Shown here: piece after piece, positions 5,354 through 30,042 of the stretch
How the letters are laid out: each line of letters starts with the position of its first letter
Position numbering within the stretch: position 1 is the first letter of the stretch
Origin: Sandaracinaceae bacterium
Lineage (GTDB): Bacteria > Myxococcota_A > Polyangia > Polyangiales > JAFGIB01
DNA length: 31,544 bases
NCBI GenBank assembly: GCA_017881145.1
Contig: JADGRG010000153.1
Location: 1-31,544 of the forward strand
Reading direction: 5' to 3'
Notes under the pieces: generated by a model
Databases searched by the model: none
Seen by the model: only the letters and a program-made list of their open reading frames with translations
What the model was told of the DNA's origin: nothing
Position numbers and translations under genes: made by a program

Positions 5354-6004
5354 TCAGACCGCCTGTGACTCGTCCAGATTGACCTTCGAGCGGTTGTTCA
5401 CCACCAGATTGACCACCTGCACGGTCGCGGAGTTGATGTCGTCGATTAGCTTCTGCGTCTTGGTGTTGTGCGCAGCGAAGCCGACCAGTGCGACGATGGC
5501 CGCGATCAGCCCGAAGGCCGTGCAGTTCATCGCTTCCGAAATGCCCTTCGCGAGCATCGTTGCTTTCGACGAAGCGTCGGCGTTGGCAACCGCGCCGAAG
5601 GCCGCGATCAGGCCCGTGACAGTTCCGAGCAGACCCGAGAGCATCGCGAGGTTCGCGAAGAGCGCGAGCAGCGGCGTACGGTGCTCGATCAGTGGCAGCT
5701 CGACCAGAGCGGCCTCATCCATCGCAGCCTGCACTTCGGCGTCGGGACGGTTCACCTTCATCAGGCCGGACTTGACGATGCGCGCGAGCGGCGCGTTGGC
5801 TGCTGAACAGAGTTTGATGGCGCGGCCGATGTCGCCGGCCAAGATGCACTTCTGCATCGTGGCGAGGAACACCTCGCGGTTGATCGAGCTCCGGTAGAGG
5901 TAGATCGCGCGTTCGACGATGATGCCGATCGAGAGGACCTGCCAGAACAAGATGGGGTACATGCCCCAGCCGCCTTCTTCGAAGTGATGCGCGAGCATTG
6001 ACAT
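5354..6004 (-). CDS. aglR: MotA/TolQ/ExbB proton-channel subunit, AglR-like
   Basis: Motifs 'WGMYPI', 'IIVER', 'GLLGTVTGLI', 'GISEAMNCTAFGL'. Strong SD GAGGAGGAG at 6012-6020 on the minus strand. First gene of a 1+2 cluster. Confidence 0.8.
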   Translation of the reverse strand: MSMLAHHFEEGGWGMYPILFWQVLSIGIIVERAIYLYRSSINREVFLATMQKCILAGDIGRAIKLCSAANAPLARIVKSGLMKVNRPDAEVQAAMDEAALVELPLIEHRTPLLALFANLAMLSGLLGTVTGLIAAFGAVANADASSKATMLAKGISEAMNCTAFGLIAAIVALVGFAAHNTKTQKLIDDINSATVQVVNLVVNNRSKVNLDESQAV

Positions 6005-6088
6005 ACCGTGTCTCCTCCTCAGGGCCGGCGATCGCGCCGGACTTCGTGTTGCGTTTGTGAGCGTTGTATCAGATCTGCCCAGCCCTGC

Positions 6089-6170
6089 GATCTAGCGCGA
6101 TCTAGCGATCTAGCCGATCCAGAATGGCGTCGGGCGAAGTCTTGGGGCGAACTCTCGGGGCGAACTCTCA
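6089..6170. repeat. Short tandem repeats upstream of aglR
   Basis: GATCTAGC at 6089, 6099 and 6107. 13-bp unit GGGCGAA(G/C)TCT(T/C)(G/A) at 6132, 6145 and 6158. Confidence 0.75.
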
Positions 6171-6186
6171 GGCTAGGACAGCGAAG

Positions 6187-6229
6187 TTAGTGATTCCACA
6201 GCTCTTTTTCGAACAATTTCAATCACTAA
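6187..6229. promoter_or_regulatory. 9-bp inverted repeat with 25-bp spacer in an AT-rich stretch (candidate protein-binding site)
   Basis: TTAGTGATT (6187-6195) and AATCACTAA (6221-6229) are exact reverse complements. Function is inferred only. Confidence 0.35.
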
Positions 6230-7023
6230 GTCGCGCCAAGTCGGACCATGGATCAAAAGTGAGTAGGCATCATATCGTCCGAACGTCCCATGTCAACTGC
6301 GATCTGCGCACATTTCTCACACCCGCTGAGGACGTATTTTTACATAGCGTCTTCCGGTGCCGCGGCCCTGGCCTCGCCCGCTGCAAATCGACACCGCCCA
6401 GCTCGCGAAGTTCCAAGCGGCGCCGTCCTTCCACTACTAGCGGACGCATGCGCTCGGGCACGCGCGCTCGGTCTGGCTGCTCGGCGGGTGCGGCGCCGCA
6501 CGCGCTGCGACCACGATCGCATTTGCTCCGCACACGCGCCGATGGGAGTGCGATAGTGGACAGCATCCGCCGCAGCGGAAGGCGCGTGCCCATTCGGAAA
6601 GCTTTCGACGCAGCGCTGAGCAGCGCGCGCAAGGCTGCTGCACCGCAACACCGACACGCACCTACGCGTGACTGGTACGACGGTCTGCGTCGCGTCGCGC
6701 GAGAGCTTGGTGTGTTCGTTGACAATCGTCGCAACGGTAAGATAGCGTTTGCCCCTCGACATTCGCCCACCGTCGTTTCATTCGACAAGCGCGATACGCG
6801 TCTGGCGTCTCGCGTCTCGCTCGATGGACACGCGACAAGCGACACGGACACGAACTCTTGAAACGATCGACGACGCCACCACTAGTAGATGGAAACCGTG
6901 TGGTTTCTGTAGCGACGCAATGGGAGTGTGCCGTATCCTCTCGTTGCGTCTTTTCGGAGTTTGCGACGGGGATCTTCTTAGGGGCGGTGCGGCCTCTCGG
7001 CGAATGAAAGGAGCCGCGATTTC

Positions 7024-7647
7024 ATGGAAAAGATTTGGGGCTTTCTGCGCGACGGCGCGCCGTTCTCGTTCATCAACGTCGCAATCTTAGCGTTCGTCAT
7101 CGCGATCATCGCGGACCGCTTCGTGCACATTCTCACGAAGCACCAGGTGAACGGCGAAGAGTTCATGGCGCAGATCCGTAAGCTGGTTCAGGCCGGCAAC
7201 ATCGATCGCGCGATCAAGCTCTGCGAAGCCGAGCCCTTGCCGCTTCTGCAGGTCGTCAAAGCGGGTCTCACCCAGGTGAACCGTGGCGAAGAGGCCATCA
7301 TCGCTCAAATGGATGAGCGCATGAGCGAAGTGGTGCCGCTGCTCGAAAAGCGCATCGGCGTGCTTTGGGCACTGGCCAATATCGCGACCCTGGTTGGTCT
7401 GCTCGGAACGATCTCCGGTCTGATCAAGTCGTTCGCCGCCGTGGCTTTCGCCGAGCCGGCGCAGAAGTCTGCCTTGCTGGCGCGCGGTATTTCGGAAGCC
7501 ATGTACAACACGGCGCTCGGCCTCGGCATCGCCGTGCTCTGCATGTTCTTCCACATGGTGCTGCACGGCTGGGCGAAGCGGATCAAGCATGACCTCGAGC
7601 GCACGCAGATGAAGCTCGAGAACCTGCTGACTCTGAAGCGCGAGTAG
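7024..7647 (+). CDS. MotA/TolQ/ExbB proton-channel subunit (AglR paralog)
   Basis: Motifs 'AGNIDRAIKLC', 'GLLGTISGLI', 'LARGISEAMYNTALGL'. SD AAAGGAG near 7005-7011. Confidence 0.92.
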   Translation: MEKIWGFLRDGAPFSFINVAILAFVIAIIADRFVHILTKHQVNGEEFMAQIRKLVQAGNIDRAIKLCEAEPLPLLQVVKAGLTQVNRGEEAIIAQMDERMSEVVPLLEKRIGVLWALANIATLVGLLGTISGLIKSFAAVAFAEPAQKSALLARGISEAMYNTALGLGIAVLCMFFHMVLHGWAKRIKHDLERTQMKLENLLTLKRE

Positions 7648-7720
7648 TTGGCGAGGAGCTCCATTCGCTCACCCATAGGTCCGGCCCTCAGGTCGGGAAA
7701 AAGCCACGGGATAAGCACGG

Positions 7721-8275
7721 ATGCCTAAGTTCACGCCAAGACAGCGCAACTTCATACGCAAGCACGGTAAGCCCCCTCAGCTCGATCCTTCCGAGGCGGT
7801 GGGCGAGCTGAACATCGTGCCGTTTCTCGACATCGTCATGAACTTGATCATGTTCTTGCTCGCGACGAGCGAGGCTGTGCTCTTGATCTCGCAGATCGAG
7901 TCCGACCTGCCGAAGATCGCGCGCGGACGCAGCCACGGTGCCGATGTCGCGACGCCGCTCAACCTCAACGTGACCATCACGGAAGTGGGCGTCATCGTCA
8001 GCGGTTCGGGTGGCAAGCTCGCGCCCGGCTGCACGACCGTCGACATGGGCCGCACGATCACGGTGCCCAAGAAAGCCAAGGACTACGACTGGCCCGGCCT
8101 CACGGAATGCGTGTCGCGGATCAAGCAGCAGTTCAAGGACGAGAACTCGGTCACGGTCAGCGCCGACCCGCAGGTGCAATATGAGCACATCGTGGCGGCG
8201 ATGGATGCGGTGCGCATCGGCAAGACCAAGCAGGAGCTCTTTCCGCAAGTATTGATCTCGGTGGGCGTGCGTTAG
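7721..8275 (+). CDS. ExbD/TolR-family subunit (second motor cluster)
   Basis: TM 'ELNIVPFLDIVMNLIMFLL' with Asp37. C-terminal 'SADPQVQYEHIVAAMDAVR'. Two periplasmic Cys. Confidence 0.9.
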   Translation: MPKFTPRQRNFIRKHGKPPQLDPSEAVGELNIVPFLDIVMNLIMFLLATSEAVLLISQIESDLPKIARGRSHGADVATPLNLNVTITEVGVIVSGSGGKLAPGCTTVDMGRTITVPKKAKDYDWPGLTECVSRIKQQFKDENSVTVSADPQVQYEHIVAAMDAVRIGKTKQELFPQVLISVGVR

Positions 8276-8332
8276 GGCTTATTTTGCTGGGCTCTGGCGT
8301 GGCCGGAGCACGGATGGGAATGCGGTCTCTCC

Positions 8333-8905
8333 ATGGCAGAGCAAGACAACGAACGGCCAGCGACTCTCGGTGACTGCAAGCGCAAAGTGCGTCGCTTGCT
8401 GGGGAAGCACCAAGAGGAAGAGGAAGTCGGCCTCAACATCTATCCGATGATGGATATGATGACGATCCTGCTCGTCTTCTTGATCCAGAGCTTTGCCTCG
8501 GGCGCGGCTGCGGTCGTGCAGTCCGAGGAGCTGCAGATTCCTGTCTCGACCTCGCAGGTGGATGCGTCCGAAGCGCTTGCGCTGGTCATTTCTTCCAGCG
8601 AGGTGTCGGTCGAGGGCAAGCACGTGCTCTCACTGCGCAACGGCAAGGTCGATTCGAGCTTGAAGCAGGGCGGAGGCAACGGCTGGCTGATCACGCCGCT
8701 CTTCAACGCGCTGAAGCAGCACCGTGATCGCCTGAAGCTGATTGCCGCCCAGAACACCAAGCGGCCGTTCCGTGGCGAGGTTCGCATCATCGCCGACAAA
8801 CGAACGCCGTTCCGTTCTCTGGGCGAGGTGATCTACACGCTCGGCCAGTCGGAATTCGGCTCGCTACGGTTCATCGTACTGAAGCAAGAAGGCCACAAGG
8901 GCTAA
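8333..8905 (+). CDS. ExbD/TolR-family subunit (second motor cluster)
   Basis: TM 'LNIYPMMDMMTILLVFLI' with Asp41. C-terminal 'IIADKRTPFRSLGEVIYT'. Confidence 0.9.
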   Translation: MAEQDNERPATLGDCKRKVRRLLGKHQEEEEVGLNIYPMMDMMTILLVFLIQSFASGAAAVVQSEELQIPVSTSQVDASEALALVISSSEVSVEGKHVLSLRNGKVDSSLKQGGGNGWLITPLFNALKQHRDRLKLIAAQNTKRPFRGEVRIIADKRTPFRSLGEVIYTLGQSEFGSLRFIVLKQEGHKG

Positions 8906-9111
8906 GGAGCCGCCCCGAAGCGGCGCTTGGTGGTCTACCCGCCGAGCAGCCTTCGGCTCTCGGCGGAGCGGCTTTTGGATTCGCGCCCTCGGTCACGCTA
9001 CGGGTGTAGCGCTCCCTCGTTCGCTGCGGGCGCGCTCGCTCTGAGCCACTTCTGGACCTCTCCTTATCGCGGTGCGGGTGCGCTCGCTCTGAGCCACTTC
9101 TGGACGCCTCT
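8906..9111. repeat. MITE-like element, copy C, plus a duplicated right end
   Basis: 8930-9064 aligns with 290-425 (GCCGAGCAGCCTTCGGCTCTCGGC; CTCGGTCACGCTAC; GTAGCGCTCCCTCG; CTGCGGGCGCGCTCGCTCTGAGCCA). A second right end spans 9073-9111. It fills the whole gap between two convergent stop codons. Confidence 0.85.
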
Positions 9112-11457
9112 TCACTGCGACGCGGCAGAGCGGCGTGCGAAGGCGATGCGCTGCAGCCAGTCGCTGGCTTCGGCGGCGTGCCCGGCGTGCCCGTCCTGCG
9201 CTAGAGCGCTGAAGGCTTCTGCGGAGCTCGCGAGCTCGCCTTGCGCAAAGTGGGAGATGCCGAGCAAACGTAGCGCCTCTGCACTTAGCTCTGGCGTCGG
9301 CAAGCCGCGCGCGCGAGCTTGGGCCAGCAGGTCGCTGGCCATCCCGAAGCGTCGTTGGAAGTAGAGCTGGCGCGCCTCCAGGTAGTGCGGCAACCCGTCG
9401 CTGCGCTCGGCTCGCAGCTCGCGCGCCAGATGAACGGCCGTGGCCCCGTCGGCTCGCTCGCCGTTGTCGCCGACCAGAAGCTCGAAGATCAGCTGGGCCT
9501 GACGAGCGCCGCCTTCCAAGCCGAGCAGCTTCACCTGCAGCAGTCGCAGCGTGTCGTCCTCGCTTGGCCGGCCCAGGAGCCGCTGATAGGCGCTCTTGGC
9601 AGTCGCCAGATCGCCGCGTCGGAACGCTTCGTCGGCGAGGCTCTGGCGAGCGAGCGCGATGATGGAGTCTGGGGCGCGCCTCGGACCCTCCAGCTCTGCC
9701 AGCTCTGCGTGGGCGCGCCCTTGCTCTCCGATGCGAGCCAGCACCGAAACCAGGATCGCGCGCGTGCTGGCATCCGAGCCGTCGACGTCCAGAATCTGGA
9801 TGCACTCGCGCTGGGCGGCCGGGTCGTCGCCAGCAGCGAGATCACTTCCCAGGGACTCGCGCAGCTTGGCAAGCGCGTGCGGACACACCTCCGAGAAGAT
9901 GCTGCTGCCAGCGAAGCGAGCCCGGGCGAGCGCCAGCGCCGAAGCGGGCAGCGGCACTCGACGAAGATAGGCATGCCACTTCTGCTCCAGCTCGTTGAGG
10001 GGCACGGAAATCGCGCGTGAGAGGTCGTCGCTTTGGTAGGCGCGCCGCACGGCGGCGCTTCCGTAGCGCTCGTCGACGAAGCGCAAGAGTGAGCCGCTGA
10101 GCGTGTAGGCCATGCCTCGCTCCTGGCCGAGAAAGCCCGCGCCCAGGAGCGCAGACAGTCGCGGTGCCATGCCGAGATCGAGCATGGCGCGCGCCCACTG
10201 ATGAGGCGTGAGCCCGCCCTGCGGCTGCCACGCGGCTGCGACCGCCACGCCCTCGATCAGCGCAGGGTCCGGCCAGAGGCCGCCGTTAGCTGCAGCCACG
10301 CGCAGCGGTCCGCGTCCAGCCCCGCGCGCCACGACGTGCACCAGCTCGTGGCCGAGCACGGGGTTGGGCCAGCCTGGCTCGCTCACATAGGCTTCCGAGC
10401 GCCAGGGTTTGGCGATGTTGGTCCCGGCCGCACCCATCAGCGCGGCTTTCTCGGCGTGTGAACGAAAGAAGAAGACCGAGATGCGGCCCGGATGCGTGAG
10501 GCCCAGCCAGTGCTCGGCTTGCCAGGTGCGAAAGTCACATTCCTCGCCCAGCCTCCGCGCCGTGCGCCGCTGCAGCTCCCGTGGAAAATACAGGTGACAG
10601 CGCGCGCTCAGCAGCTCTCCGCCGAGGCCCTCGCGGATCATCGCAACGCTGCTGGCGTGGCCGAGCTGTGGCGCGAAGATCTCGGCCGTGAATGCGCCAG
10701 CCAGGCAGAGCAGCGCGACCACGAACGCGGAGCGTCGCCCCTGCCGCGGACGAAACGACAAGCGCAGCCTGCTGGGATCGCCCGTGCTGACCACCAGCAA
10801 CGCCAGGCCTGCGATGAAGGCGCTGGTCGCGACGCGCAGCGACACAAACGCCGTGGTGATCGCGACCCCTTCGTCGTAGAGCGTGCCGGCGAAGTAGCCG
10901 AAGTAGTGACCGTAGGCGAAGATGGCTGGCGTCGCGTAGAAGCGAGACGCGCCCAGGAGCATCTCGCCGACGGGCAGGCCAAACGCGAGCCAACCCGCAA
11001 GGCGCGGCCTGGCTACCAGCATCCCGCATATGACGCCGGTCATGCTGCCGAGCAATACGCCGAACCCGGGGCCGAGGAGCATGAAGAGCAGACCGGTGAG
11101 CGGCGTGCAGTTGCGCACGCGCAGAGCGTCGAGCCAGAGCAAGACACAGGGCAGCACGAAGAGCGAGAGCGCGTGGCCCAGCGCTGCGTCGAGCACTTGG
11201 GTCACGCTGGAAGAGTCGCCCCGTTGGCGCGCGTGGCTGGTCAGTTGTGCTGCGACCAGTGCAGCCATTGGCGGCAAGAGCATTCCGAGGCAGAGGGCGC
11301 TCTCGGGGCCCTGCACGCCCAAGAGAGGCACCGCACACAAGCCAAGTGTCGCCGTCCCGGCTATCGCGAGCGAGACGCGTGCGCTCGGCACCGCAAACGA
11401 GCTGGCAAGCCAGCGGCGCAACGCGCCAGCGAACGAAGCACTCGGCGAAACCAGCAT
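9112..11457 (-). CDS. Polytopic membrane protein with HExxH gluzincin-like (peptidase MA-type) domain and C-terminal TPR-like helices
   Basis: About seven hydrophobic segments in the first ~270 aa. HELVH at 10336-10350, followed 28 residues later by the E of 'LIEGVAVA'. Ala/Leu-rich helical C-terminus. ATG overlaps the lon stop (TGATG). Confidence 0.75.
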   Translation of the reverse strand: MLVSPSASFAGALRRWLASSFAVPSARVSLAIAGTATLGLCAVPLLGVQGPESALCLGMLLPPMAALVAAQLTSHARQRGDSSSVTQVLDAALGHALSLFVLPCVLLWLDALRVRNCTPLTGLLFMLLGPGFGVLLGSMTGVICGMLVARPRLAGWLAFGLPVGEMLLGASRFYATPAIFAYGHYFGYFAGTLYDEGVAITTAFVSLRVATSAFIAGLALLVVSTGDPSRLRLSFRPRQGRRSAFVVALLCLAGAFTAEIFAPQLGHASSVAMIREGLGGELLSARCHLYFPRELQRRTARRLGEECDFRTWQAEHWLGLTHPGRISVFFFRSHAEKAALMGAAGTNIAKPWRSEAYVSEPGWPNPVLGHELVHVVARGAGRGPLRVAAANGGLWPDPALIEGVAVAAAWQPQGGLTPHQWARAMLDLGMAPRLSALLGAGFLGQERGMAYTLSGSLLRFVDERYGSAAVRRAYQSDDLSRAISVPLNELEQKWHAYLRRVPLPASALALARARFAGSSIFSEVCPHALAKLRESLGSDLAAGDDPAAQRECIQILDVDGSDASTRAILVSVLARIGEQGRAHAELAELEGPRRAPDSIIALARQSLADEAFRRGDLATAKSAYQRLLGRPSEDDTLRLLQVKLLGLEGGARQAQLIFELLVGDNGERADGATAVHLARELRAERSDGLPHYLEARQLYFQRRFGMASDLLAQARARGLPTPELSAEALRLLGISHFAQGELASSAEAFSALAQDGHAGHAAEASDWLQRIAFARRSAASQ

Positions 11458-13838
11458 CAGGCGTGCGCGGAAGAGAGTGCGGCCGGCGGCGGCTTGATTT
11501 CGAGCGGCTCGGTGAGCGCGATTTTCAAGACCTCGTCGACGCGTGAGATCAGGTGCACCGTGAGATCCTTGCGGATGCGTTCGGGCACCTCGTCGAGGTC
11601 AGGCGCGTTCTGCTTGGGGATCACCAGCACCTTGATACCCGCGCGGTGAGCCGCCAGGCACTTCTGCTTGAGTCCGTCGACACGGAGCACTTTGCCGCGC
11701 AGCGTAATCTCACCGGTGAGCGCCACATCGGGTCGTACCGGGATGGACCGGAGCATGGACACCAGCGAGAGGAAGATGGAGAGCCCGAGCGCCGGACCGT
11801 CCTTGGACATGCCCCCCTTGGGAAGATGGATGTGCAGGTCGATGCGATCGAGGAAGTCATCCTTGAGGCCGTAGGAGGACGCGCGGGCTCTCAGATACGA
11901 AAACGCCGCCTGGGCCGATTCCTTGAGCACTTCGCCCATCTTGCCGGTCAGATGCACCTCGCCCTTGCCGGGCATCTGCGTGCACTCGACCAGCATGATC
12001 TCGCCGCCGCCGGGCGTCCAACACAGCGTTGTAGCGATGCCGATCGCTGCCACCTTCTCTGCCACGTCGAGCTCGATCTTGGGTGGGCCGAGTAGTGTCT
12101 CGACGAGCTTGGGATCGGCATCGATGTGCGTGCTGTCGCCGCCTGCCACCCGCACCGCGACGGCGCGACAGAGCGCGGCCACCTGCTGCGCCAGCTTCCG
12201 AACGCCGGCTTCCGAGGTGTATTCGTTGACCAGCTTTTCGATCGCGGCGTCGCTGATCTCGAGGTGCTCGGGCGTCAGGCCGTGATCGGCGAGCTGTCGG
12301 GGAACCAGGAAGTCGCGTGCAATCGCCAGCTTGTCGTCGCGCGTGTAGCCGGGAATCTCGATGATCTCCATGCGATCGAGGAGCGGGCGCGGGATGGTGT
12401 CACGGCGATTGGCGGTGGCGATGAAGAGCACCTGCGAGAGATCCACCGGCACGTTCAGGTAGTGGTCCACGAACGCGTGGTTCTGTTCGGGGTCGAGCGC
12501 CTCGAGCAGCGCACTGGCCGGATCACCGCTGTAATCGGCGCTCATCTTGTCGACTTCGTCGAGCACGAAGACCGGGTTGCCGGCACCGGCTTTCTTGAGG
12601 CCGGCGACGATGCGACCCGGCAAGGCGCCCACGTAGGTGCGTCGGTGGCCGCGGATCTCGGCCTCGTCCTGCACACCGCCAAGCGCAATGCGCTGAAAAG
12701 CTCTGCCGGTGGCGCGGGCGATGGAGTGGCCGAGCGAAGTCTTGCCGACGCCCGGCGGACCGATGAAGCAGAGGATCGGGCTGCGCTTGTTGGTGCGGAG
12801 CTTACGAACCGCGATGTATTCGACGATGCGCTTCTTGGGCTCTTCCAGGCCGTGGTGATCTTCGTCGAGCACGCGCCGCACTTCGCTCACGTCGAGGCGG
12901 TCGGGCGTCTGCCGACTCCACGGCAGATCGGAGAGCCACTCCACGTAGTTGAACGCCACCTGATATTCGGCGCTGGCTGAGTTCATCGAGCTCATTCGCG
13001 AAAGCTCGCGCCGTCCGGCTCGGTCCGCCTCGGGGGGCGGGTTGGCTTTGCTCAGCCGCTCGCGCAGGTTGTCGAGCTCGTCGTCCTCGGTGCCGGCGTC
13101 GCCGAGCTCGCGGCGGATCGCGCGCAGCTGTTGTCGCAAGAGCAGCTCGCGCTGCGACTTGGACATCTCCTGCTCGACCATCGAGGCGACTTCTTGTTTG
13201 ACGCGGTGAATTTCGTGCTGGCGTTTGATCAGATCGAGCACCGCCTTGAGCCGCGCGCGCACATCCAGCGTTTCGATGATGCGCTGCTTCTTGTCGGTGG
13301 GGATGGGTAAGTGGGAAGCGACCAGATCGGCGAGCGCACCGGGGTCCTGCACGTTGTCGAGGACCACGCCCATCTCGCGCGGTGGCGAGGGCAGAGTGCG
13401 TGCCAAGTCGCGCGCGATCTCGCGCAGGTGCACGGTGAGAGCGTCGATCTCTTCGTCGCGCTGCAGGTGTTCAGCGAGGCGTTCCACGCGTGCACGCAGC
13501 CAGGGCTCGCGGCCCACCGGACGCACCACCCGCATGCGTGCGATACCCTGCAACACAACGCTGTAGTGGCCCGAGCTCAACCGAATCACTTTGAGCACGC
13601 GCGCCAGCGTCCCGAAGTTGTAGAGCCGCTCGAAGCCCGGGTCTTCCTCTTCGGCGTCGCGCTGCGCGAGCACGCCGATGGTCGGTCGCTCTTGGCCGAA
13701 CGCTTCCTCGATCAGCCGCACCGAGCGCGCACGACCGACGTTGACCGGCACCACCGATGCGGGGAAGAGCACCGAGTTACGAAGCGCGAGGATAGGCAAC
13801 GCATCGAGCGCGCTCTCCGGAATGATCGACTCAGCCAT
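11457..13838 (-). CDS. lon: Lon-family AAA+ protein (LonA type) with catalytic Ser replaced by Ala
   Basis: LON N-domain 'LPILALRNSVLFP', Walker A GPPGVGKTS, pore loop RRTYVGALPG, Walker B VLDEVDK, Arg finger PLLDRME. Protease domain reads KDGPALG where KDGPSAG is canonical. Confidence 0.95.
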   Translation of the reverse strand: MAESIIPESALDALPILALRNSVLFPASVVPVNVGRARSVRLIEEAFGQERPTIGVLAQRDAEEEDPGFERLYNFGTLARVLKVIRLSSGHYSVVLQGIARMRVVRPVGREPWLRARVERLAEHLQRDEEIDALTVHLREIARDLARTLPSPPREMGVVLDNVQDPGALADLVASHLPIPTDKKQRIIETLDVRARLKAVLDLIKRQHEIHRVKQEVASMVEQEMSKSQRELLLRQQLRAIRRELGDAGTEDDELDNLRERLSKANPPPEADRAGRRELSRMSSMNSASAEYQVAFNYVEWLSDLPWSRQTPDRLDVSEVRRVLDEDHHGLEEPKKRIVEYIAVRKLRTNKRSPILCFIGPPGVGKTSLGHSIARATGRAFQRIALGGVQDEAEIRGHRRTYVGALPGRIVAGLKKAGAGNPVFVLDEVDKMSADYSGDPASALLEALDPEQNHAFVDHYLNVPVDLSQVLFIATANRRDTIPRPLLDRMEIIEIPGYTRDDKLAIARDFLVPRQLADHGLTPEHLEISDAAIEKLVNEYTSEAGVRKLAQQVAALCRAVAVRVAGGDSTHIDADPKLVETLLGPPKIELDVAEKVAAIGIATTLCWTPGGGEIMLVECTQMPGKGEVHLTGKMGEVLKESAQAAFSYLRARASSYGLKDDFLDRIDLHIHLPKGGMSKDGPALGLSIFLSLVSMLRSIPVRPDVALTGEITLRGKVLRVDGLKQKCLAAHRAGIKVLVIPKQNAPDLDEVPERIRKDLTVHLISRVDEVLKIALTEPLEIKPPPAALSSAHA

Positions 13839-14017
13839 GGAGCCGCACTATTGCCGATCTTCCGAAGCACGCCAACACACGCACCATTCCCAGAGTCAGG
13901 ACACAGGCCGCACGGTTTTTTTTGGTGGCCATTTCGTGCACGTCTGTAGTAGAAGTTTTGACTAGCGGGGGACGCTGTAGGATATTGGATCACAGGTCAG
14001 GAGTGACTGGAACGCAC

Positions 14018-14170
14018 ATGCACAAGAGATGGCTCAGCACTTTGGTTTTCGCAGCGCTCTGTGCTTCTGGCTGCACCGGCATACCGGGCGCCATCTGGGG
14101 AAACCTTGCAGTGTTCGGCATGAGCGTCGGCATCTTCATGGGCACGCTTTCTTTAGGTCGCGGCCGCTAG
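14018..14170 (+). CDS. Small (50 aa) predicted lipoprotein or membrane protein
   Basis: MHKRWLSTLVFAALCASGC: basic N-terminus, hydrophobic core and lipobox-like ASGC, then a second hydrophobic helix. AGGAG at 13999-14003. Confidence 0.55.
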   Translation: MHKRWLSTLVFAALCASGCTGIPGAIWGNLAVFGMSVGIFMGTLSLGRGR

Positions 14171-14258
14171 GCCAGCAGCTCTTAGGGATGCGGTCGCTAG
14201 TAACGCAGCCACCAAGCCAGGGTCGCTAGCGGTTTCCACTTGGTTCTTGATAGCCTAG
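14162..14258. repeat. Phased GG(T/C)CGCTAG direct repeats
   Basis: GGCCGCTAG 14162-14170, GGTCGCTAG 14192-14200, GGTCGCTAG 14221-14229, partial GCCTAG 14253-14258. Spacings of the CTAG ends are 30, 29 and 29 bp. Confidence 0.5.
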
Positions 14259-14271
14259 AGGGCTGGGTCCC

Positions 14272-15378
14272 ATGTCGCCCGCGCGCCTCACTCCGGAAAC
14301 CGACAAGTCTTTCCGACGCCTTTCGGACTTTCGGCTCGCTGACCTCGAAGCGATCCGTCTGCTCTTGCGCGGCGGCTCGGTCATCGATTGGCACCGCATG
14401 AACTTCGCCTCCGAAGAGGAGGCCGTCGAGTTCATCGGTTCGCAGGATTTCGATCTGGACGATCAGCGCGACCTCGATCGCATCAGCGCGATTCGCGACG
14501 AAGCGATCGCGTTTCTGCGCCGGCACTTCGACTTCCCGGTGCCGCGTCCGGTCGCCGCGCTCGACCTGCCCGGGTTGCTCATGCTGGCCTCAGGCTCAGG
14601 TCACAGGCAGATGTGCGCCTGCGCGATTCTCAAGGCGATGCACATCGTGCACCACCTGGAAGGCCGAGAGCTGCTCTTCATGCTGCCCTTTTCCGACCAG
14701 GAGCTCTTCCACTTGGTCGAGGAGAAAGTCTATCGCGTGATGGGTGGCATGCTGGCCCACGGCTTTCCGATCCTGGAGTTCACTGGCGGGCGCAAGAACA
14801 AAGACTCGCTCTACCAGAAGCTGCTCTCCAAGTCGGATACCATCGCCGCCAACATCTACGACAAGCTGCGCTTCCGCATTGTGACGCACGCACCGGAAGA
14901 CGTCTTTCCGACGCTCAACTACATGCTGCGGCACATCTTCCCGTTCAACTACGTGATCCCGGGGCAGAGCACCAACACGCTCTTCCAGTTCAACTCCTAT
15001 TGCGAGCACGACCCGCACCTCTCCCTGCTGCTGCCGGAGATGCAGACCAAGCCCGATCAGGAAGACGCGCTCACGCGCATGGATAATCGCTTCAGCGCGC
15101 AGAGCTACTCCATCGTGCACTTCGTGGTCGATATGCCGTTGCGTGTGCCGCAAGAGATGCTCGACCGCGCGCCGCCGCAAGCGCGAACGCTGGGACCGGT
15201 CGTCTTCGTGCTCACCGAGTTCCAGATCCTCGACCGCGCTACCGAACAGCGCAATGAGCTCGGCGACGCGAGCCACGCCGCGTACAAAGAGCGTCAGAAG
15301 CGCGCCGTCATGCATCGGCTCAAGGTCGGCGAGGGTTTCGAGCCCGGCAACACCGCACCACCGCCGCGCAAGGGTTAA
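14272..15378 (+). CDS. TIGR04552-like protein with RelA/SpoT synthetase motifs (small alarmone synthetase-like)
   Basis: Motifs GRKNKDSLYQK, IYDKLRFRIV, YSIVH, EFQI and ELGDASHAAYKE line up in order with the RelA synthetase motifs. The family name is recalled, not searched. Confidence 0.7.
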   Translation: MSPARLTPETDKSFRRLSDFRLADLEAIRLLLRGGSVIDWHRMNFASEEEAVEFIGSQDFDLDDQRDLDRISAIRDEAIAFLRRHFDFPVPRPVAALDLPGLLMLASGSGHRQMCACAILKAMHIVHHLEGRELLFMLPFSDQELFHLVEEKVYRVMGGMLAHGFPILEFTGGRKNKDSLYQKLLSKSDTIAANIYDKLRFRIVTHAPEDVFPTLNYMLRHIFPFNYVIPGQSTNTLFQFNSYCEHDPHLSLLLPEMQTKPDQEDALTRMDNRFSAQSYSIVHFVVDMPLRVPQEMLDRAPPQARTLGPVVFVLTEFQILDRATEQRNELGDASHAAYKERQKRAVMHRLKVGEGFEPGNTAPPPRKG

Positions 15379-15727
15379 CTACATACCCGCCGAGCATCCT
15401 GCTGCTGCTTTGCCAGATCGCGGCGGGCTTGCCGGCGTCGATTCGCGTCCGTGGTTGACAGCGCTGGCGTCGGTGCGCAGGTGCACGCATGCGTGCGCGC
15501 GTGTGCCGTGAGGTGCCTGGAGCAGATGGCGACGCTCTGTCGCCGTGGGTGGGAGATCGTGCTGCGCTGCTGCGTGCGTGCTGCGCCGCTGCGTGCGCGC
15601 TGCGCTGCTGCAGCCCGGCTGCAGCGTGCGCGCTGCACCGCCGCCGCAGCGCTGCAGAAAGCGCTCCACAAGCAGCCATTTTTCGGTGAATTCCCGGGTC
15701 AAGCCTGGGTAGCCGCGCGCCTTCGGG

Positions 15728-15744
15728 TTGGCACGCGACTTGTA
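15728..15744 (+). promoter_or_regulatory. Candidate sigma54 -24/-12 promoter
   Basis: TTGGCACGCGACTTGTA matches YTGGCACG-N4-TTGCW except C to T at the -12 position. About 80 bp upstream of the ATG at 15826. Confidence 0.4.
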
Positions 15745-15825
15745 TTAGCCCTGGTCATAGATGCTGAGGCGACACCCCCCCGGTGGGCTGGTCCACTTCA
15801 ACATCACAGACCGTGGAGGCACGTC

Positions 15826-16317
15826 ATGGACACCGACCTCACCCTCTTCATCGTCGTCGCAGCCGTCGCCCTCGGCACCGCACTGTCTGCGATGATGACT
15901 CAATGGCTCAAGGCCGATGATGCGGCCGCCGACGCTGAGCTCGGTGTGCGCACGAGCCTCAGAGAGTTCCACGGCGAGGCTGGTTCTGTGGGGATGGGCG
16001 CCAGCACACAGGCCGCTGCCGTCGTGGCCGCGTCCACCAGCATGGCCGACGACGAGACCACGCTGGCTCGGCTCTTGGCTGGTTGGGGCGGCTCTGGCAT
16101 GGTGCTCGGCATCGCCTTCGGCGCCACGATGTGGGGCGCGACCGGTGCACTCTTGGGTGGCATCCTGGCCTCGACGCTCTCGATTGGCGCGGTCGTCGTA
16201 GCCGTGTCGGTGCTCGACCGAGTGCATGCGCGACACGCCGAGGAGACGCGCCTGGCGGCCGAGGCCCGCGAGCAAGCAGCTGCCGCAAGCCCAGACGGTG
16301 CAGTGCGCGCGAGCTAA
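15826..16317 (+). CDS. Hypothetical membrane protein (163 aa)
   Basis: GGAGG at 15815-15819 precedes ATG 15826. N-terminal TM plus two Gly-rich TM segments. The longer start at 15451 runs through low-complexity DNA and is unlikely. Confidence 0.7.
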   Translation: MDTDLTLFIVVAAVALGTALSAMMTQWLKADDAAADAELGVRTSLREFHGEAGSVGMGASTQAAAVVAASTSMADDETTLARLLAGWGGSGMVLGIAFGATMWGATGALLGGILASTLSIGAVVVAVSVLDRVHARHAEETRLAAEAREQAAAASPDGAVRAS

Positions 16318-16962: not shown

Positions 16963-17252
16963 GGGGTCGTCTCCTGTGTGGGTGAGTTACGCGAGCGGGT
17001 TGGCTCGCGGGTTTGCGCGTTGGTTTGCTCGTGGCCACATACCTGACGCAACGGAATCCTGGCAAGCGTTCCCGCGCGCGACGGAGTACTCCCACCACAG
17101 GTCGGGTAGCAACCGAGCTTGCGATGAGGTACGCAAAGGCCTGCGTATGTGTGACGGGCCGGCAGGTTGCAGCGGCTTGGAGATTTCGCGGCCTCGGCCC
17201 TACAGAAAGGCTCGACGTCGGCCGTAAACAAGCAAGGACACTAGCGTCGAGC

Positions 17253-20200
17253 ATGCGGACTACCGGGCACTGGGTCGAGCAGTTGAGCCAGCTTCACCGG
17301 CTGAAGACGCTCGAGGAGCAACGCGCGGTCTGGCGCCAGGGCATGGCCCAGCTTGCGGCCGCGGCGGCAGACCAACGTGCGGTGCCTCTCGAAGGCGCCA
17401 ACCCGGAAGACCTGGTGGCCAGTGCGCGGGTGGCGCTGCAGGCCTGCCTGGTCGATGACGTCGATTGGCTCTCGCCGCCAGCAGCTGCAGCCGCCATCCA
17501 TGAGCTGGCTACGGCCTTGCCGCATGGTGCCGAACGCAAGGAGCTCTCGCGCCGAGCCCTGCAGCGCATGGAGCACGGCGATGGCTCGACCTTCGTCGCG
17601 CTGGCGACGGCGCTTGCTCTCGGAACGACCGAGGGCATCGCGCCGGAGACGTTGCGCAGCCGCATCGCGCTCTGTCTGGCACTGCCCACCGGTGGTGGCA
17701 CGCAGGTGGACGCCATGGCGCTCGCTCTGATCTCGCGCACCGAGTTGCAGAGCGAATACCTCTTGCGTGGAGCCACCGGCTCACTGCCGTCGCGGCGTCT
17801 GGCTGCACGCTTGCTCGAAAGAGCTGCGCGCGAGGCCGCTCGACGATCGAGTCTGGGTGACGACGCCGGCCTCAAGGTCTTCGCCAGCGAAGCCGTGACT
17901 GCCGTGTGGCGGCGCCTCTTGGCGGATCGCGAATCGCTGGTCTGGCGTCACGTTGCCACCGCACGCGGTCTGCTCTCGCGCGCGGTGAGCGAGCTCGACG
18001 CGGAGATCGAGCGCAACCTGGAACCCGATCTCTCCCCCACCGAGTGGCGTCGCGCGGCGGCCTCGCTCGCGGCGCGCATCGCCGTCGCTCCCAGTGCAGC
18101 GCTCGCCCGCGCTCGTTCGCTCTTTGGCACACAGCTCTTCGTCAAGGACCGTGGTTTGGCGGGAGCCATGGTCTTCGGTCTACCTCGCGCCGCCGAGATC
18201 GAGCCGGAGACCGCCGAGTTGCTGCTGGAATCGCTGATCGAAATCGGCGGAAGCTACGCCATCGAATCGCTGGTGGAGCTCCTGCGCGAGCAACCGGGCA
18301 GCGGCTTTGGACGGCGTGCCGCGGAGCTTGCGGCTCAGCGCTTGCGTGGCGAGCTGCAGCGACCCGAGACCAGCGACACCGCCGGCAACCGCGCCAGCGC
18401 TTCGCTGATGCTCGATCACTTGCAGGCGGCGAAGAATGGCCGGGTCACGCCGCTTGCCGCGCGGTTCTCGCAGGCTCTCGAGGTGTTTGCCGAGCACAGC
18501 GCCGACGCTGCCTTTGCAGCGGCCGCAGCCGGCCTCGGCGACCTCGATGGCGCGCTCGAACAACTGGCGCGCACCAGCGAGACCAGTGCAGCGGGGCGCC
18601 ACCAAGTCCTGCGTTTGCTCAGCGACATCGATACCGGGTTGTTGCAGTCGTCGCTGGTCAGAGATCTGCTCGCGCTCGGCGGTGACCTGGGCCGCTCGGC
18701 GTTGCAGCATGTGGACGAGCTCTTCGAGCAGCTCAACACTTGGCTGCTCACACATGAGAGCGCCGCGGCTTCGGGCGCGGTCGTCGACGCCACGCTGCGC
18801 ATGCGACGCTTGGTGACGCTCCTACACTTGATGGACGCGGAGTCGGGCCACGAGCCGAACTCCGCGCCCGGCAAGTCGCGGCGTGTGCGCGTCGCCAACA
18901 CGCTCCTGACGGAGCTGCGGCAGCATGCGGCAGGAGGTTTCCGGCGCGTACTCTGCGCGACCTTGGCGCGTGCCTTCGACGCCATGGAGCGCGAAGACGC
19001 CTTCGAGATCTCGGACCTGGTACTGGTGGTTTCAAGCACTCTCGACTCCGCCGACGACATCCAGACGCTGGCCGAAGCCTCCATGGTGCCTGCGCTAGAG
19101 ACCAGTCTCTTCGCGTTGGCCCAGCTCATGCGCAGCGGCGTGACAGCGGCCAACGACGGTCCGGCGCGGCGGCAGCGGTTGGATGCGCTGCGCGCTTTTG
19201 TTGCAGCTCTGCCTGCTGCCAGCTCGCCGCGTGTTTCGGCGTTGCGCCGCGCGCTGCTCGATCTACACCGCAGTCTCGACGCGCTGGCCGGCTTGCGTTG
19301 CCTTGCGGACATCGATCCCAACGGTGTAGCGCTGCTCGAACAAGCCACGCACACGCTTGCGCTCTTGCTGGCCGGAGCGAGCCGACGCGTGCTCCTTTCA
19401 CCCAGCCTGCGAAGCATGAGCTTCGGCGATGCGCTGCGCGAGCTCACGCTGGCGCTCGACGGAGTGCGCGACGGCTCTCGACTCGCGAGCTTCGAGTGCT
19501 CGCTCAACGCGCTCAGCGAGTCCCTGGCCACTGATCTGCCGCGCTGGCTCGCACAGACCATCGAATCGGTTCTGGAGACGCTGCGCAGGCTGCCACTGCA
19601 GGCGCTCTCCAGCCACGGCAACAGTATGCCGCCGGCAGCTCGCGAGAGACCGCTGCCCCCGTGGGTGCCACCGAGCCGTACGCTCGGTGGCTTCCACATC
19701 GTCGAGCCACTCGGAGAAGGCAGCGGTGGCTCGGTGTTCGTGGTCAAGCGCGTCGACGAGCGTCACAAACCCAATGCCCAACGCTTTGCGCTGAAGGTGC
19801 CCTCCTACGATGGACAGGCTGCGCGCGCTCTCTCGGAACAGCAGTTCTTGAAGCTCTTCCGCGAAGAGGCCGGCGCGCTCCTGGCTCTCCCTGACGACCA
19901 TCCGAACCTGGCGGGCTTCGTGACCTTCGACGCAGGCGTCAAGCCCAAACCCGTGCTGGTGATGGAGCTGGTGGAAGGAATCTCGCTTGCCCGTCTGCTG
20001 GAACGGCGCAACCTTTCGACCATCGACGCGTTGGACATTCTCGACGGTGTGGCAGCGGGACTGCAGGCCATGCACGACCTGGGCATCGCGCACCTCGATC
20101 TCAAGCCGCTCAACATCGTGCTGCGCGAGAGCGTTCGAGACGCTCTGCTCGACCGCGCAGCGCCCGCCAGCGCGCTAGATCCGGTGCTCGTCGACTTCGG

Positions 20201-20612
20201 GCTTTCCGGAAGGCGACTGCGGCCGGGCTGCGCGACCGCGAACTACGGCGCGCCGGAGGTCTGGGGCTTCATGTCCAAAGGCGAGACCAGCGACCCTCGA
20301 CCTGCAGACGTCTACGCCTTTGCTTGCCTCGCCTACGAAACCCTCACTGGCTCCGATCTCTTCAAGGCACCGAGCGAGATGGCGATGATTGCAGCTCATA
20401 TCAGCCACGATGGTCTGCCCGACCCGCTGGCCAGCTGGCAGAGTGATCCCACACTCGCTCTACTTTCGGCATGGCTGCAGCACGGCTTGCGCCGCAATCC
20501 CGGCGATCGTCTGACCATCGATGGGTTGCGCGAACAACTCAGAGAGCTGCGACCCGCGCTCCACGAAGTGAGCTGGCCCTTGTCGCTGGCTGCGCCACAT
20601 CGCGCCGCGTAG
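17253..20612 (+). CDS. Hanks-type Ser/Thr kinase with C-terminal kinase domain and a large helical N-terminal region
   Basis: Motifs GEGSGG, ALKVP, HLDLKPLN, DFG, YGAPE, DVYAFAC in the last ~310 aa. ATG 17253 follows AAGGA; the ORF-track start at 17013 is probably too far upstream. Confidence 0.88.
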   Translation: MRTTGHWVEQLSQLHRLKTLEEQRAVWRQGMAQLAAAAADQRAVPLEGANPEDLVASARVALQACLVDDVDWLSPPAAAAAIHELATALPHGAERKELSRRALQRMEHGDGSTFVALATALALGTTEGIAPETLRSRIALCLALPTGGGTQVDAMALALISRTELQSEYLLRGATGSLPSRRLAARLLERAAREAARRSSLGDDAGLKVFASEAVTAVWRRLLADRESLVWRHVATARGLLSRAVSELDAEIERNLEPDLSPTEWRRAAASLAARIAVAPSAALARARSLFGTQLFVKDRGLAGAMVFGLPRAAEIEPETAELLLESLIEIGGSYAIESLVELLREQPGSGFGRRAAELAAQRLRGELQRPETSDTAGNRASASLMLDHLQAAKNGRVTPLAARFSQALEVFAEHSADAAFAAAAAGLGDLDGALEQLARTSETSAAGRHQVLRLLSDIDTGLLQSSLVRDLLALGGDLGRSALQHVDELFEQLNTWLLTHESAAASGAVVDATLRMRRLVTLLHLMDAESGHEPNSAPGKSRRVRVANTLLTELRQHAAGGFRRVLCATLARAFDAMEREDAFEISDLVLVVSSTLDSADDIQTLAEASMVPALETSLFALAQLMRSGVTAANDGPARRQRLDALRAFVAALPAASSPRVSALRRALLDLHRSLDALAGLRCLADIDPNGVALLEQATHTLALLLAGASRRVLLSPSLRSMSFGDALRELTLALDGVRDGSRLASFECSLNALSESLATDLPRWLAQTIESVLETLRRLPLQALSSHGNSMPPAARERPLPPWVPPSRTLGGFHIVEPLGEGSGGSVFVVKRVDERHKPNAQRFALKVPSYDGQAARALSEQQFLKLFREEAGALLALPDDHPNLAGFVTFDAGVKPKPVLVMELVEGISLARLLERRNLSTIDALDILDGVAAGLQAMHDLGIAHLDLKPLNIVLRESVRDALLDRAAPASALDPVLVDFGLSGRRLRPGCATANYGAPEVWGFMSKGETSDPRPADVYAFACLAYETLTGSDLFKAPSEMAMIAAHISHDGLPDPLASWQSDPTLALLSAWLQHGLRRNPGDRLTIDGLREQLRELRPALHEVSWPLSLAAPHRAA

Positions 20613-29300: not shown

Positions 29301-29527
29301 GCCAGATGGTCAGGGCTTTCCTTCAGCGCGGCGAGCAGCGCACGCAGGCGGTCGAACTCGCTGGTGACGCCGGCGACGACGGCTGCGTCCGCACCTGCAT
29401 CTCCGGCGTCATGGGCAAGGCCAGCGTCCCCAGTCTTCGTCGAAGCCGGATTCGATCCGCAGCCTGGCGTGACGCGCGCCGCGATCAGGGCCAGTGCAGA
29501 GGTGAGCCACTCGCGACGGGTGATCAT
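26393..29527 (-). CDS. Large Tat-exported lipoprotein with transglutaminase-like and vWA-like regions
   Basis: Twin-arginine TRREWL, lipobox-like TPGC (Cys23), DAG-rich linker, 'FAFVRDNI...GVGTPRERAELLA.LL..AG', and MIDAS-like WDGTGS / T / FTDG. Confidence 0.8.
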   Translation of the reverse strand: MITRREWLTSALALIAARVTPGCGSNPASTKTGDAGLAHDAGDAGADAAVVAGVTSEFDRLRALLAALKESPDHLAARAAIAVATKDPKLIFAFVRDNIAAVPPLGAAESIETAVRFGVDNLLRTGVGTPRERAELLATLLGQAGLSASIVKGDPAGALYPSDAPKKVYLRSIALAFEPGPLPFMPAQNAAAPTIIDPDGAESAALFAKLRPLLPADISVNTPYLSPFSGVPLVAVQDKGATVYLNTLLPDASYGESYATNIAPAAALAGARKLTLRLSATRAGAPQTPITLAQGEFGYDELAGARVKLSPQPTVSLPVFLAAKPQDITNFVAGFALIGSDGKQKRYIAGAAISAFGDVAETKAGTTTINGIPLVTGGDASTVSAVTAKASVAHAPIIELTLAPVDSNGAIVAGLPASSFVIEEDGVRVSALVRENGGAPRVLLLWDGTGSQPVLTDSQAGAIADAVFSAVPRAAVQVCSLDGAPSAAGFVQTASSAVKQALLGAAGATSPLYDGVLAGLAAGPSLMLVFTDGNDTQAAGRAAQFLATTTSCPILVIGCYVASSKLNPDALSPIAQKSGGRLVDAGDLTDLTVAKAALSELGASRSAFPYRLAYASRGAAGTHQVQVRVGRADASTSYTLTASTSTSGQPTSAMLSEFVGIQLHVEMDGQSVDRTLVGLPVAPLPGDVDASVQLAAASAAVRDFFLSSAWITFEGAAPTLSAWLDDALSTAIAGEPVQHAIDAKNAQEAYAQAQHAPARPLLRSLLAHAPLPYPDGVSVVETALRAAVHLTLPLSRRTSVDLLPTTRFTTLGAADGKAAFDTTFQASLRLAIAESFMSKGSTRSYLASAPLSVLVPGGDTTAALSGFPASARASQAALLDRYSSTYRILASDGSSSAFFAVDASSGTALGILRDGTGGAIESCQEIVDTANDQIDALGILVSEIDSGMVNTFVIIAAVGRAAAVAFAEAALSFTDPLIDPSILQLGDTIVCSVLGDILADHIPISKALHLGSAAENLLKSKTSGKITDQLPMCKAEKPCSGTAP

Positions 29528-30042
29528 CGGGGGAGGGTAGCTCAGGGAGCGAAGGAACGCGCCCGAAGAAAGTCATGGCTCGGTGCACGGCGCTGGCGAA
29601 CGTCGATGTCTCCGCGCACGCCGAGCGCGAATCAGACCGGCGGAACAGGCGGTGGGAGCACAGGTAGAGCGACGCAACCGAACTCGAAGCGGAGCTCATC
29701 ATAGGTTCCAGCTTTGGCGTTCATGCAGAGATCGCCGAAGAGGTCGACACCTGCGATGCTGCCCAGCGTTAGCACGGGGTAGTGGGGTGCGCACAGGCCG
29801 CGCCAAGTAGTGTCCATCGCCGCTGAGATCACCCGTTGTCTGTAGTGAATCGGCGTGGCTTGCTGGTCTCTCGGGCACTGCGAGCCACAGCCAATCGCGC
29901 CACTGCCACAATGTGCGTGTACTTGCATATGTGCTCCGCGGTGTCCACAGCGGGAACGCGTTGACGAGTGCTTCGCGCAGCGCAAGCGCACCCAGCCCTG
30001 GTACCATCGGTTGACCCACTGCGCGTGCCGCTCGCCGACCCG

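Follow-up and report, generated by a model that had tools for sequence, protein, structure and literature searches.

A TIGR04552-family protein from a Sandaracinaceae bacterium with a divergent RelA/SpoT-type synthetase fold

We analysed a 31,544-nucleotide stretch of DNA from a Sandaracinaceae bacterium of the phylum Myxococcota (contig JADGRG010000153.1 of assembly GCA_017881145.1, positions 1 to 31,544; hereafter the window), and we focused on the gene at positions 14272 to 15378 of the forward strand. This gene is a member of the TIGR04552 family. In the predicted structure, its product has a helical N-terminal domain and, at residues 138-352, a RelA/SpoT homologue (RSH)-type synthetase fold. 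From the residues that are kept in the putative active site, we propose that the protein is probably an active Mg2+-dependent RSH-type pyrophosphotransferase, the acceptor of which may be non-canonical. The gene and its two domains are as follows.

14272..15378, forward strand: TIGR04552-family gene with an ATG start, open over 368 amino acids (aa) (open reading frame (ORF) call and translation; NCBIfam matches)
14272..14682, forward strand: family-specific N-terminal helical domain, aa 1-137 (all-helical in both models; conserved family-wide)
14683..15327, forward strand: divergent RSH (RelA/SpoT-type) synthetase-fold domain, aa 138-352 (Foldseek, VIA-align, and hhalign)

Family membership and predicted fold

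The first-pass annotation, which was made from the sequence alone, had assigned the gene to a family of unknown function. This was borne out, and NCBIfam gives TIGR04552 no function label. The protein scored 336.7 bits against the TIGR04552 profile (cut-off 125), with residues 23-350 aligned to profile positions 3-350 of 352, and 327.5 bits against TIGR04562; both models are titled just 'TIGR04552 family protein'. The family is large, with more than 3,484 clusters at 90% identity among 8,000 candidates scored and 801 clusters at 50% identity in an exhaustive phmmer search. Because the phmmer matches span residues ~13-353, conservation extends over both the N- and the C-terminal part, and the two-domain architecture is common to these clusters. 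Compared with other TIGR04552/TIGR04562 proteins, such as MXAN_4858 of Myxococcus xanthus, the target is a full-length member with the same architecture and no structural difference. No informative fused domain was found in the longer TIGR04552 members (459-501 aa).

In the Pfam scan of the target, the sole family found was RelA_SpoT (PF04607; 22.8 bits, E = 1.2e-4), and the match covered profile positions 4-112 of 113. When diverse family members were scanned one by one, 26 of 62 matched PF04607 at E <= 0.01 (best E = 3.6e-5), and no second family recurred. Thus, the RelA_SpoT signal is not a chance match in one sequence, and the family lies just under the Pfam threshold.

These 62 full-length members (29-64% identity to the query, ~35% mean column identity) made up the family alignment. 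When its profile was searched against all PDB sequences, only five chains were found, and all of them were RSH proteins (RelP/YwaC, RelSeq, S. aureus Rel, and E. coli RelA). The alignments covered the Syn1/Syn2 motifs and then again Syn4/Syn5. It should be noted that the RSH chains were reached by the family profile alone, and a single-sequence phmmer search of the target against PDB gave no match. In addition, hhalign of the 62-member alignment against the N-terminal Rel fragment of the same genome gave E = 1.4e-4; the register was the same, and identity was 29% across 119 columns. The ESM Atlas feature and fold searches returned nothing beyond the TIGR04552 family itself.

The AlphaFold2 model built from the 62-member alignment had a predicted local distance difference test score (pLDDT) of 91.7 and a predicted template modelling score (pTM) of 0.89. 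All 41 top matches of a Foldseek search against PDB (E <= 0.001) were RSH synthetases, and the best was 5dec_B (E = 7.9e-6). In VIA-align comparisons of model residues ~138-345, RelQ (5ded_E) gave Z 10.2 (147 residues, root-mean-square deviation 3.6, model 138-340), ribosome-bound RelA and RelSeq gave Z 9.7 each, and RelP gave Z 9.1-9.5. The values were Z 6.0 for CapRel and Z <= 5.9 for Pol-X nucleotidyltransferases (NTases), and the RSH structures stood ~4 Z units above the non-RSH NTases. The first-pass annotation had asked for a structural check, with a fold other than that of a RelA-type nucleotidyltransferase as the result against it; by Foldseek and structure alignment, the predicted fold is that of a RelA/SpoT-type nucleotidyltransferase.

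The nearest known proteins, RelQ and RelP (PDB 5DED, 5DEC, 6EWZ, and 6FGK), thus share the alpha/beta synthetase fold with the target (Z 9.1-10.2 over ~145-150 residues) at 14-20% identity. The long RSH proteins Rel, RelA, and SpoT (PDB 1VJ7 and 5IQR, and the Rel fragments of the genome itself) share the synthetase domain (Z 9.6-9.7, and the hhalign match above). However, the target has no HD hydrolase, TGS, or ACT domain by Pfam, as had been claimed, and the structure searches with the N-terminal domain gave no HD-like match above noise.

The first-pass annotation had also noticed an N-terminal extension of ~170 aa. The extension is real, but it is ~135 aa long since the RSH-like domain starts near residue 138. 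It has its own conserved positions in the 62-member alignment, among them an invariant Lys121. When this domain was folded alone (pLDDT 87.3), no convincing structural relative was found by Foldseek (E >= 1.9), and the best VIA-align match (Z 6.3, an RbcX helical hairpin over 69 residues) was in the noise range for helical domains. The N-terminal domain is novel. A degenerate HD hydrolase was considered for it as well, and this idea is unsupported because the HD chain 5tk6 reached only Z 4.0.

An RSH synthetase joined to an accessory domain is also seen in DsRel, a small alarmone synthetase (SAS) with tetratricopeptide repeats (SAS-TPR; Tde-SAS of Treponema denticola) of Deltaproteobacteria and spirochaetes, in which the catalytic domain is followed by a C-terminal TPR (PMC10434055). 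We rejected the identity of the target with DsRel. The catalytic-like domain of the target is C-terminal, the accessory domain is N-terminal, and no TPR was detected by Pfam or in the model.

Retained residues and remodelled substrate sites

The residues that bear on the putative chemistry lie in the following features.

14794..14820, forward strand: Syn1, putative triphosphate-binding Lys175, Ser179, and Lys183, aligned to RelSeq K243/S247/K251 and SaRelP K80/S84/K88
14860..14877, forward strand: Syn2, Asp197, Arg200, and Arg202 (alignment to RSH, conservation)
14977..15084, forward strand: G-loop insertion of ~38 aa (about aa 236-271) with two short helices (spacing, hhalign gap against the genome's own Rel, and model)
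15106..15120, forward strand: Syn3, putative acceptor-stacking aromatic Tyr279, followed by His283, aligned to RelP 'YRSLH'
15217..15234, forward strand: Syn4, Glu316, Gln318, and Asp321 (alignment to RSH, conservation)
15274..15288, forward strand: Syn5, His335 and Tyr338-Lys339, aligned to RelSeq HWAYK and to HWKYK of the genome's own Rel

The residue roles were taken from the SaRelP-AMPCPP structure (PMC5794853) and an analysis of RelSeq and RelP (PMC7983052), the alignments from the PDB profile search and hhalign, and the counts below refer to the 62 members. Ten of 12 functional positions are kept, each in 57-62 members (Tyr and Phe at 279 pooled). The Mg2+ ligands correspond to Asp197 (SaRelP D107/RelSeq D264; 61/62) and Glu316 (SaRelP E174/RelSeq E323; 62/62). 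Lys175 (61/62) and Lys183 (60/62) stand at phosphate-binding positions, and Ser179 (58/62) at that of the alpha-phosphate contact. Furthermore, Arg202 aligns with an adenine-stacking Arg (SaRelP R112/RelSeq R269; 59/62), His335 with the ribose-binding SaRelP H190 (60/62), and Gln318 with the conserved Syn4 Gln (RelSeq Q325; 61/62). The position of the acceptor-base-stacking aromatic (SaRelP Y151/RelSeq Y308) is Tyr279 in 47 members and Phe in 14, and Tyr338 and Lys339 are found in 61 and 57 members, respectively. The Mg2+ Asp/Glu pair, the Lys-Ser-Lys clamp, the equivalents of Arg112 and His190, and the G-loop aromatic are likenesses to RelQ and RelP, although the aromatic sits in a longer loop here.

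All five motifs quoted by the first-pass annotation (14788-15290) were found again in the order given, and they extend from Gly173 (nt 14788) to Glu340 (nt 15291). However, the description as a full motif series was slightly overstated on two points. First, the Arg of its 'GR' (Arg174) was taken as the RelA-motif Arg, but its counterpart in RelSeq is Pro242, and Gly173 is the residue that occupies the adenine-stacking Arg position. Second, the 'YSIVH' motif exists in the target, but its His is not a family-wide feature because position 283 is Asn in most of the 62 members.

The differences from RelQ and RelP are concentrated around the substrate sites. The equivalents of SaRelP Arg78 and Arg91 are missing, and Arg200 stands at the Gly position of DxxGxR as a family-specific residue (61/62). 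The E and Q of ExQxRT are kept in Syn4, but its 'RT' is replaced by a hydrophobic residue and Asp321, which takes the place of the Thr in 61 of 62 members; a replacement here had been claimed before. The longer segment before the Y..H motif was confirmed too: Asp197 and Tyr279 are 82 aa apart, compared with 44 in both SaRelP (D107-Y151) and RelSeq (D264-Y308). This insertion holds helices at 240-246 and 248-256 and has lower pLDDT at 261-270 in the AlphaFold2 model. The distance from Tyr279 to Glu316 is 37 residues versus 23 in SaRelP and 15 in RelSeq, which indicates a second insertion of 14-22 aa between beta4 and beta5. The ~38 extra residues before Tyr279 lie in the beta3-beta4 'G-loop', the part that holds the acceptor guanosine in all known (p)ppGpp synthetases. 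Further family-specific invariant residues are Asn235, Pro289, Asn328, and Arg341.

Several observations weigh against an active enzyme of this type. The PF04607 score of the target (22.8 bits) is below the gathering threshold of 27 bits. The adenine-stacking Arg (SaRelP R78/RelSeq R241) is lost, with Gly173 here and Ser, Gly, or Asn family-wide, so that only half of the two-Arg adenine sandwich (SaRelP R78 and R112; RelSeq R241 and R269), namely Arg202, is kept. The phosphate-contacting R91 of SaRelP is lost as well, with Ser186 here and Ser or Ala in the family. Judged from the alignment, the loss of these two ATP-contact Args could weaken ATP binding. Near the lost positions, Arg174 is found in 33 and Lys187 in 53 of the 62 members. 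In addition, the putative active site may be blocked by the N-terminal domain or the insertions, no biochemical data for any TIGR04552 member were found in the searched literature, and an earlier insertion in M. xanthus MXAN_4858 was reported without an overt motility defect (bioRxiv 10.64898/2026.08.28.747804).

These points could be taken to mean that the protein is a catalytically dead RSH-fold pseudoenzyme that does no more than bind a nucleotide, in a sensing or scaffolding role, or else an NTase of other chemistry such as nucleotidyl transfer. The two lost ATP-contact Args and the score under the Pfam threshold would agree with this, and Pol-beta-type NTases share the core fold. However, Glu316 is invariant, and although the mean identity is only ~35%, 59-61 of 62 members retain Asp197, Lys175, Lys183, Arg202, His335, and Tyr338. 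Active enzymes typically show this kind of constraint on their Mg2+ and phosphate ligands, which favours activity over a pseudoenzyme. As for other chemistry, the distance of ~4 Z units between the RSH structures and other NTases speaks against it. We therefore consider both forms of this explanation very unlikely.

For an active RSH-type pyrophosphotransferase, the mechanism might be as follows. The TIGR04552 protein would be a cytoplasmic two-domain enzyme that retains the Mg2+ carboxylates Asp197/Glu316, the clamp Lys175/Ser179/Lys183, Arg202, His335, Gln318, and Tyr/Phe279. Because the metal, triphosphate, ribose, and acceptor-stacking residues are kept, pyrophosphate transfer is most likely retained, and the beta,gamma-pyrophosphate of ATP (or another NTP) would most likely be transferred to the 3'-OH of a nucleotide-type acceptor. 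The donor pocket appears altered, with the Arg78/R241 equivalent gone and the conserved Arg200 new. Since Args are lost, the G-loop is expanded, and the 'RT' has given way to Asp321, the substrates could differ, and the acceptor and/or the regulation would probably be unlike those of the classical (p)ppGpp SAS. RSH relatives are known to synthesize (p)ppApp or to pyrophosphorylate tRNA, and thus the fold readily changes its acceptor.

The first-pass annotation had read the protein as an alarmone synthetase or pyrophosphotransferase. The RSH synthetase fold found by Foldseek and VIA-align agrees with this, but (p)ppGpp as the product is not established, in view of the lost Args, the 38-aa insertion, and the replaced 'RT'. 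If the protein were a classical SAS, it would make (p)ppGpp from ATP and GDP or GTP and would be a second, Rel-independent source, for example in development or under envelope stress. In favour of this, no structures come closer than RelQ, RelP, and Rel, and the protein retains the Mg2+ carboxylates, Gln318, and the acceptor-stacking Tyr. A census in 2011 also found a SYNTH domain in Myxococcus and Sorangium members (see below). However, the 38-aa insertion falls right in the guanosine-binding G-loop, Tyr279 is changed to Phe in 14 of 62 members, the 'RT' of EIQIRT is replaced, and one Arg of the adenine sandwich is gone. Furthermore, the conserved N-terminal domain is found in no characterised SAS. 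We regard the classical SAS as rather unlikely, with perhaps one chance in a few.

Distribution and earlier records of the family

Of 301 genomes sampled across the phylum, 199 carry the TIGR04552 gene, nearly always as one copy. It was found in 47 of 48 genomes from the same order and in all 10 others from the same class, but in none of 14 control genomes. The closest loci are in Polyangiales metagenome-assembled genomes (MAGs; 84% and 77% identity), and the gene is also present in Polyangium, Sorangium, Sandaracinus, Labilithrix, and Byssovorax. The source assembly itself is a fragmented MAG (749 contigs, ~86% complete) with a single copy. Such a distribution in single copy points to a core gene passed on vertically, as opposed to a mobile gene for a toxin or for defence. 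In Polyangia, the TIGR04552 gene is thus near-universal, single-copy, and vertically inherited, and across Myxococcota it is widespread.

Canonical RelA_SpoT domains were found on two contig ends of the MAG, both in long RSH fragments. The genome therefore also carries a canonical long RSH, and the TIGR04552 gene is an additional enzyme. One fragment (contig C594, 2-1078, reverse strand) is the N-terminal part of a long RSH, 359 aa, and runs off the contig; the other (contig C69, 2-1318, forward strand) is a C-terminal part of 438 aa that enters from a contig end. Their RelA_SpoT matches overlap partly, and they could be one gene split by assembly or two paralogues. In myxobacteria, development is started by (p)ppGpp made by Rel. 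With the TIGR04552 protein, these social, predatory bacteria have another RSH-fold enzyme that is near-universal and still uncharacterised. If active, it would be an overlooked source of alarmone or a route to a different nucleotide signal, and its study could add to the products or acceptors known for the RSH fold.

The family has been seen before. A census of RSH proteins in 2011 (Atkinson et al., PMC3153485) listed an unclassified 'SYNTH[S]' in M. xanthus DK1622 (YP_633016) and S. cellulosum So ce56 (YP_001614396). The label was given to only three proteins in the whole census, with no subgroup name, discussion, or function, and members in Bdellovibrio, Haliangium, and Anaeromyxobacter were not detected (PMC3153485). 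In a complete Sorangium chromosome, RelA_SpoT-like sequence occurred at just two places: Rel, with 154 bits, and, 114 kb away, the TIGR04552 gene, with 22.2 bits. This spacing fits the gap of 89 accessions between the Rel and SYNTH entries of So ce56, so the census had almost certainly detected the TIGR04552 family, and its M. xanthus and S. cellulosum SYNTH[S] entries are almost certainly members. From the accession order, we infer that YP_633016 is MXAN_4858. The family is thus already known, in that it is catalogued as TIGR04552 and was almost certainly detected, without comment, in 2011, and the relationship is not surprising to a specialist.

In M. xanthus, MXAN_4858 (TIGR04552) lies near the gliding G1 cluster, and its insertions had BarSeq fitness profiles like those of the glt gliding genes (bioRxiv 10.64898/2026.08.28.747804). 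In addition, a Bdellovibrio evolution study reported an indel in a TIGR04552 gene. The RSH relationship is mentioned in neither of the two studies. Because MXAN_4858 already has a gliding-like BarSeq phenotype, the question is directly testable in M. xanthus. In the gene's context in a probable Myxococcaceae genome, no glt genes were recognised by Pfam, as Glt proteins have no Pfam models.

Gene neighbourhood

The neighbours upstream of the TIGR04552 gene are as follows.

13958..13986, forward strand: sigma-70-like promoter candidate before the micro-ORF (consensus match only)
14018..14170, forward strand: lipoprotein-like micro-ORF of 50 aa; the signal peptide ends in a lipobox Cys, and a single hydrophobic helix with a GIF.GT core follows
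11457..13838, reverse strand: lon (LonA, endopeptidase La), divergently transcribed (TIGR00763 887.5 bits, cut-off 608; Pfam Lon domains)

The context was surveyed in 80 Polyangiales loci with 8-kb flanks, of which 65 were eligible for lon and 74 for the micro-ORF. Homologues of the micro-ORF were found upstream of the TIGR04552 gene in 55 of the 74 loci. A lipobox-like Cys is present in 46 of 56 peptides. In the public annotation of two relatives, the micro-ORF is called as a gene of 47 or 65 aa. In the window, it is separated from the target by 101 nt, and a consensus scan found no terminator-like site between them; the promoter candidate is the sole promoter-like site in 13700-15600 (chance expectation 0.2). 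LonA is divergent and upstream of the TIGR04552 gene in 39 of the 65 loci, always with a gene for a ~780-aa TPR protein and often with ExbB/ExbD genes, while Polyangium and Sorangium lack the lon/TPR/Exb arrangement. Four distant Myxococcota genomes keep the TIGR04552 gene with neither lon nor the micro-ORF upstream. Thus, both associations look Polyangia-specific.

These data bear on the option, raised by the first-pass annotation, of a tRNA-modifying enzyme or toxic SAS (toxSAS). Such a protein would inhibit growth by pyrophosphorylation of the tRNA 3'-CCA or by (p)ppApp, with the micro-ORF or another neighbour as antitoxin, in defence or addiction. The RSH fold has altered acceptor-site features, CapRel is among the structural matches (Z 6.0), and a small ORF is often adjacent upstream, all as this explanation would expect. 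However, the option fits poorly with a gene that is near-universal, single-copy, and vertical (47/48 in the order), unlike mobile toxin-antitoxin or defence genes. PADLOC found no defence-system match, CapRel scores well under RelQ and Rel, and the M. xanthus transposon mutants have only mild developmental phenotypes. The micro-ORF, for its part, resembles a membrane lipoprotein, is lineage-restricted, and is missing upstream in the four distant genomes that bear the enzyme. A toxSAS-like inhibitor is thus a highly improbable explanation.

Instead, the micro-lipoprotein, the frequent back-to-back lon, and the core distribution suggest a housekeeping or signalling role near the membrane and not a toxin. 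A bolder picture is that the TIGR04552 proteins, which are annotated in Bdellovibrio too, are RSH-derived enzymes of the Myxococcota core. Their remodelled donor pocket, expanded acceptor loop, and unique N-terminal domain would allow them to make a nucleotide other than (p)ppGpp or to pyrophosphorylate a non-nucleotide or macromolecular acceptor. In Polyangiales, they would form with the membrane micro-lipoprotein a so far unrecognised signalling module with a link to the envelope or to gliding motility. We offer this only tentatively, and the odds are against it. In any case, the conserved micro-lipoprotein partner in Polyangiales is a handle on regulation.

Further upstream, the window holds a block of Exb/Tol-like genes.

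5354-6004, reverse strand, and 7024-7647, forward strand: ExbB/TolQ-like genes (part of the block 5354-11457)
6124-6861, forward strand: unannotated 245-aa ORF within the block
7721-8275 and 8333-8905, forward strand: two ExbD/TolR-like genes within the block
9112-11457, reverse strand: 781-aa weakly TPR protein within the block

Many Polyangiales relatives share the synteny of the block 5354-11457 with lon and the TIGR04552 gene. Its Exb/Tol genes all score far under the NCBIfam TolQ, TolR, ExbB, and ExbD cut-offs, which points to a divergent Ton/Tol-like energiser, and NCBIfam names no system for the ExbB/ExbD/TPR block. The gliding motor of M. xanthus is also TolQR-like.

Some other observations were made in the window, where Rfam found no RNA family. 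The 288-aa ORF directly downstream of the target (15451-16317, forward strand) has no Pfam or NCBIfam match and was found in none of the 80 related Polyangiales loci (tblastn, E < 1e-8, >= 40% coverage); it may be lineage-specific or no gene at all. A 1044-aa ORF (26393-29527, reverse strand) has no Pfam or NCBIfam match, and a 437-aa ORF (29632-30945, reverse strand) has no Pfam match. Finally, a 1199-aa ORF (17013-20612, forward strand) has a Ser/Thr protein kinase domain at aa 894-1170, preceded by ~890 residues with no Pfam match. In its stead, a PEGA-domain kinase on the opposite strand lies downstream of the TIGR04552 gene in relatives.

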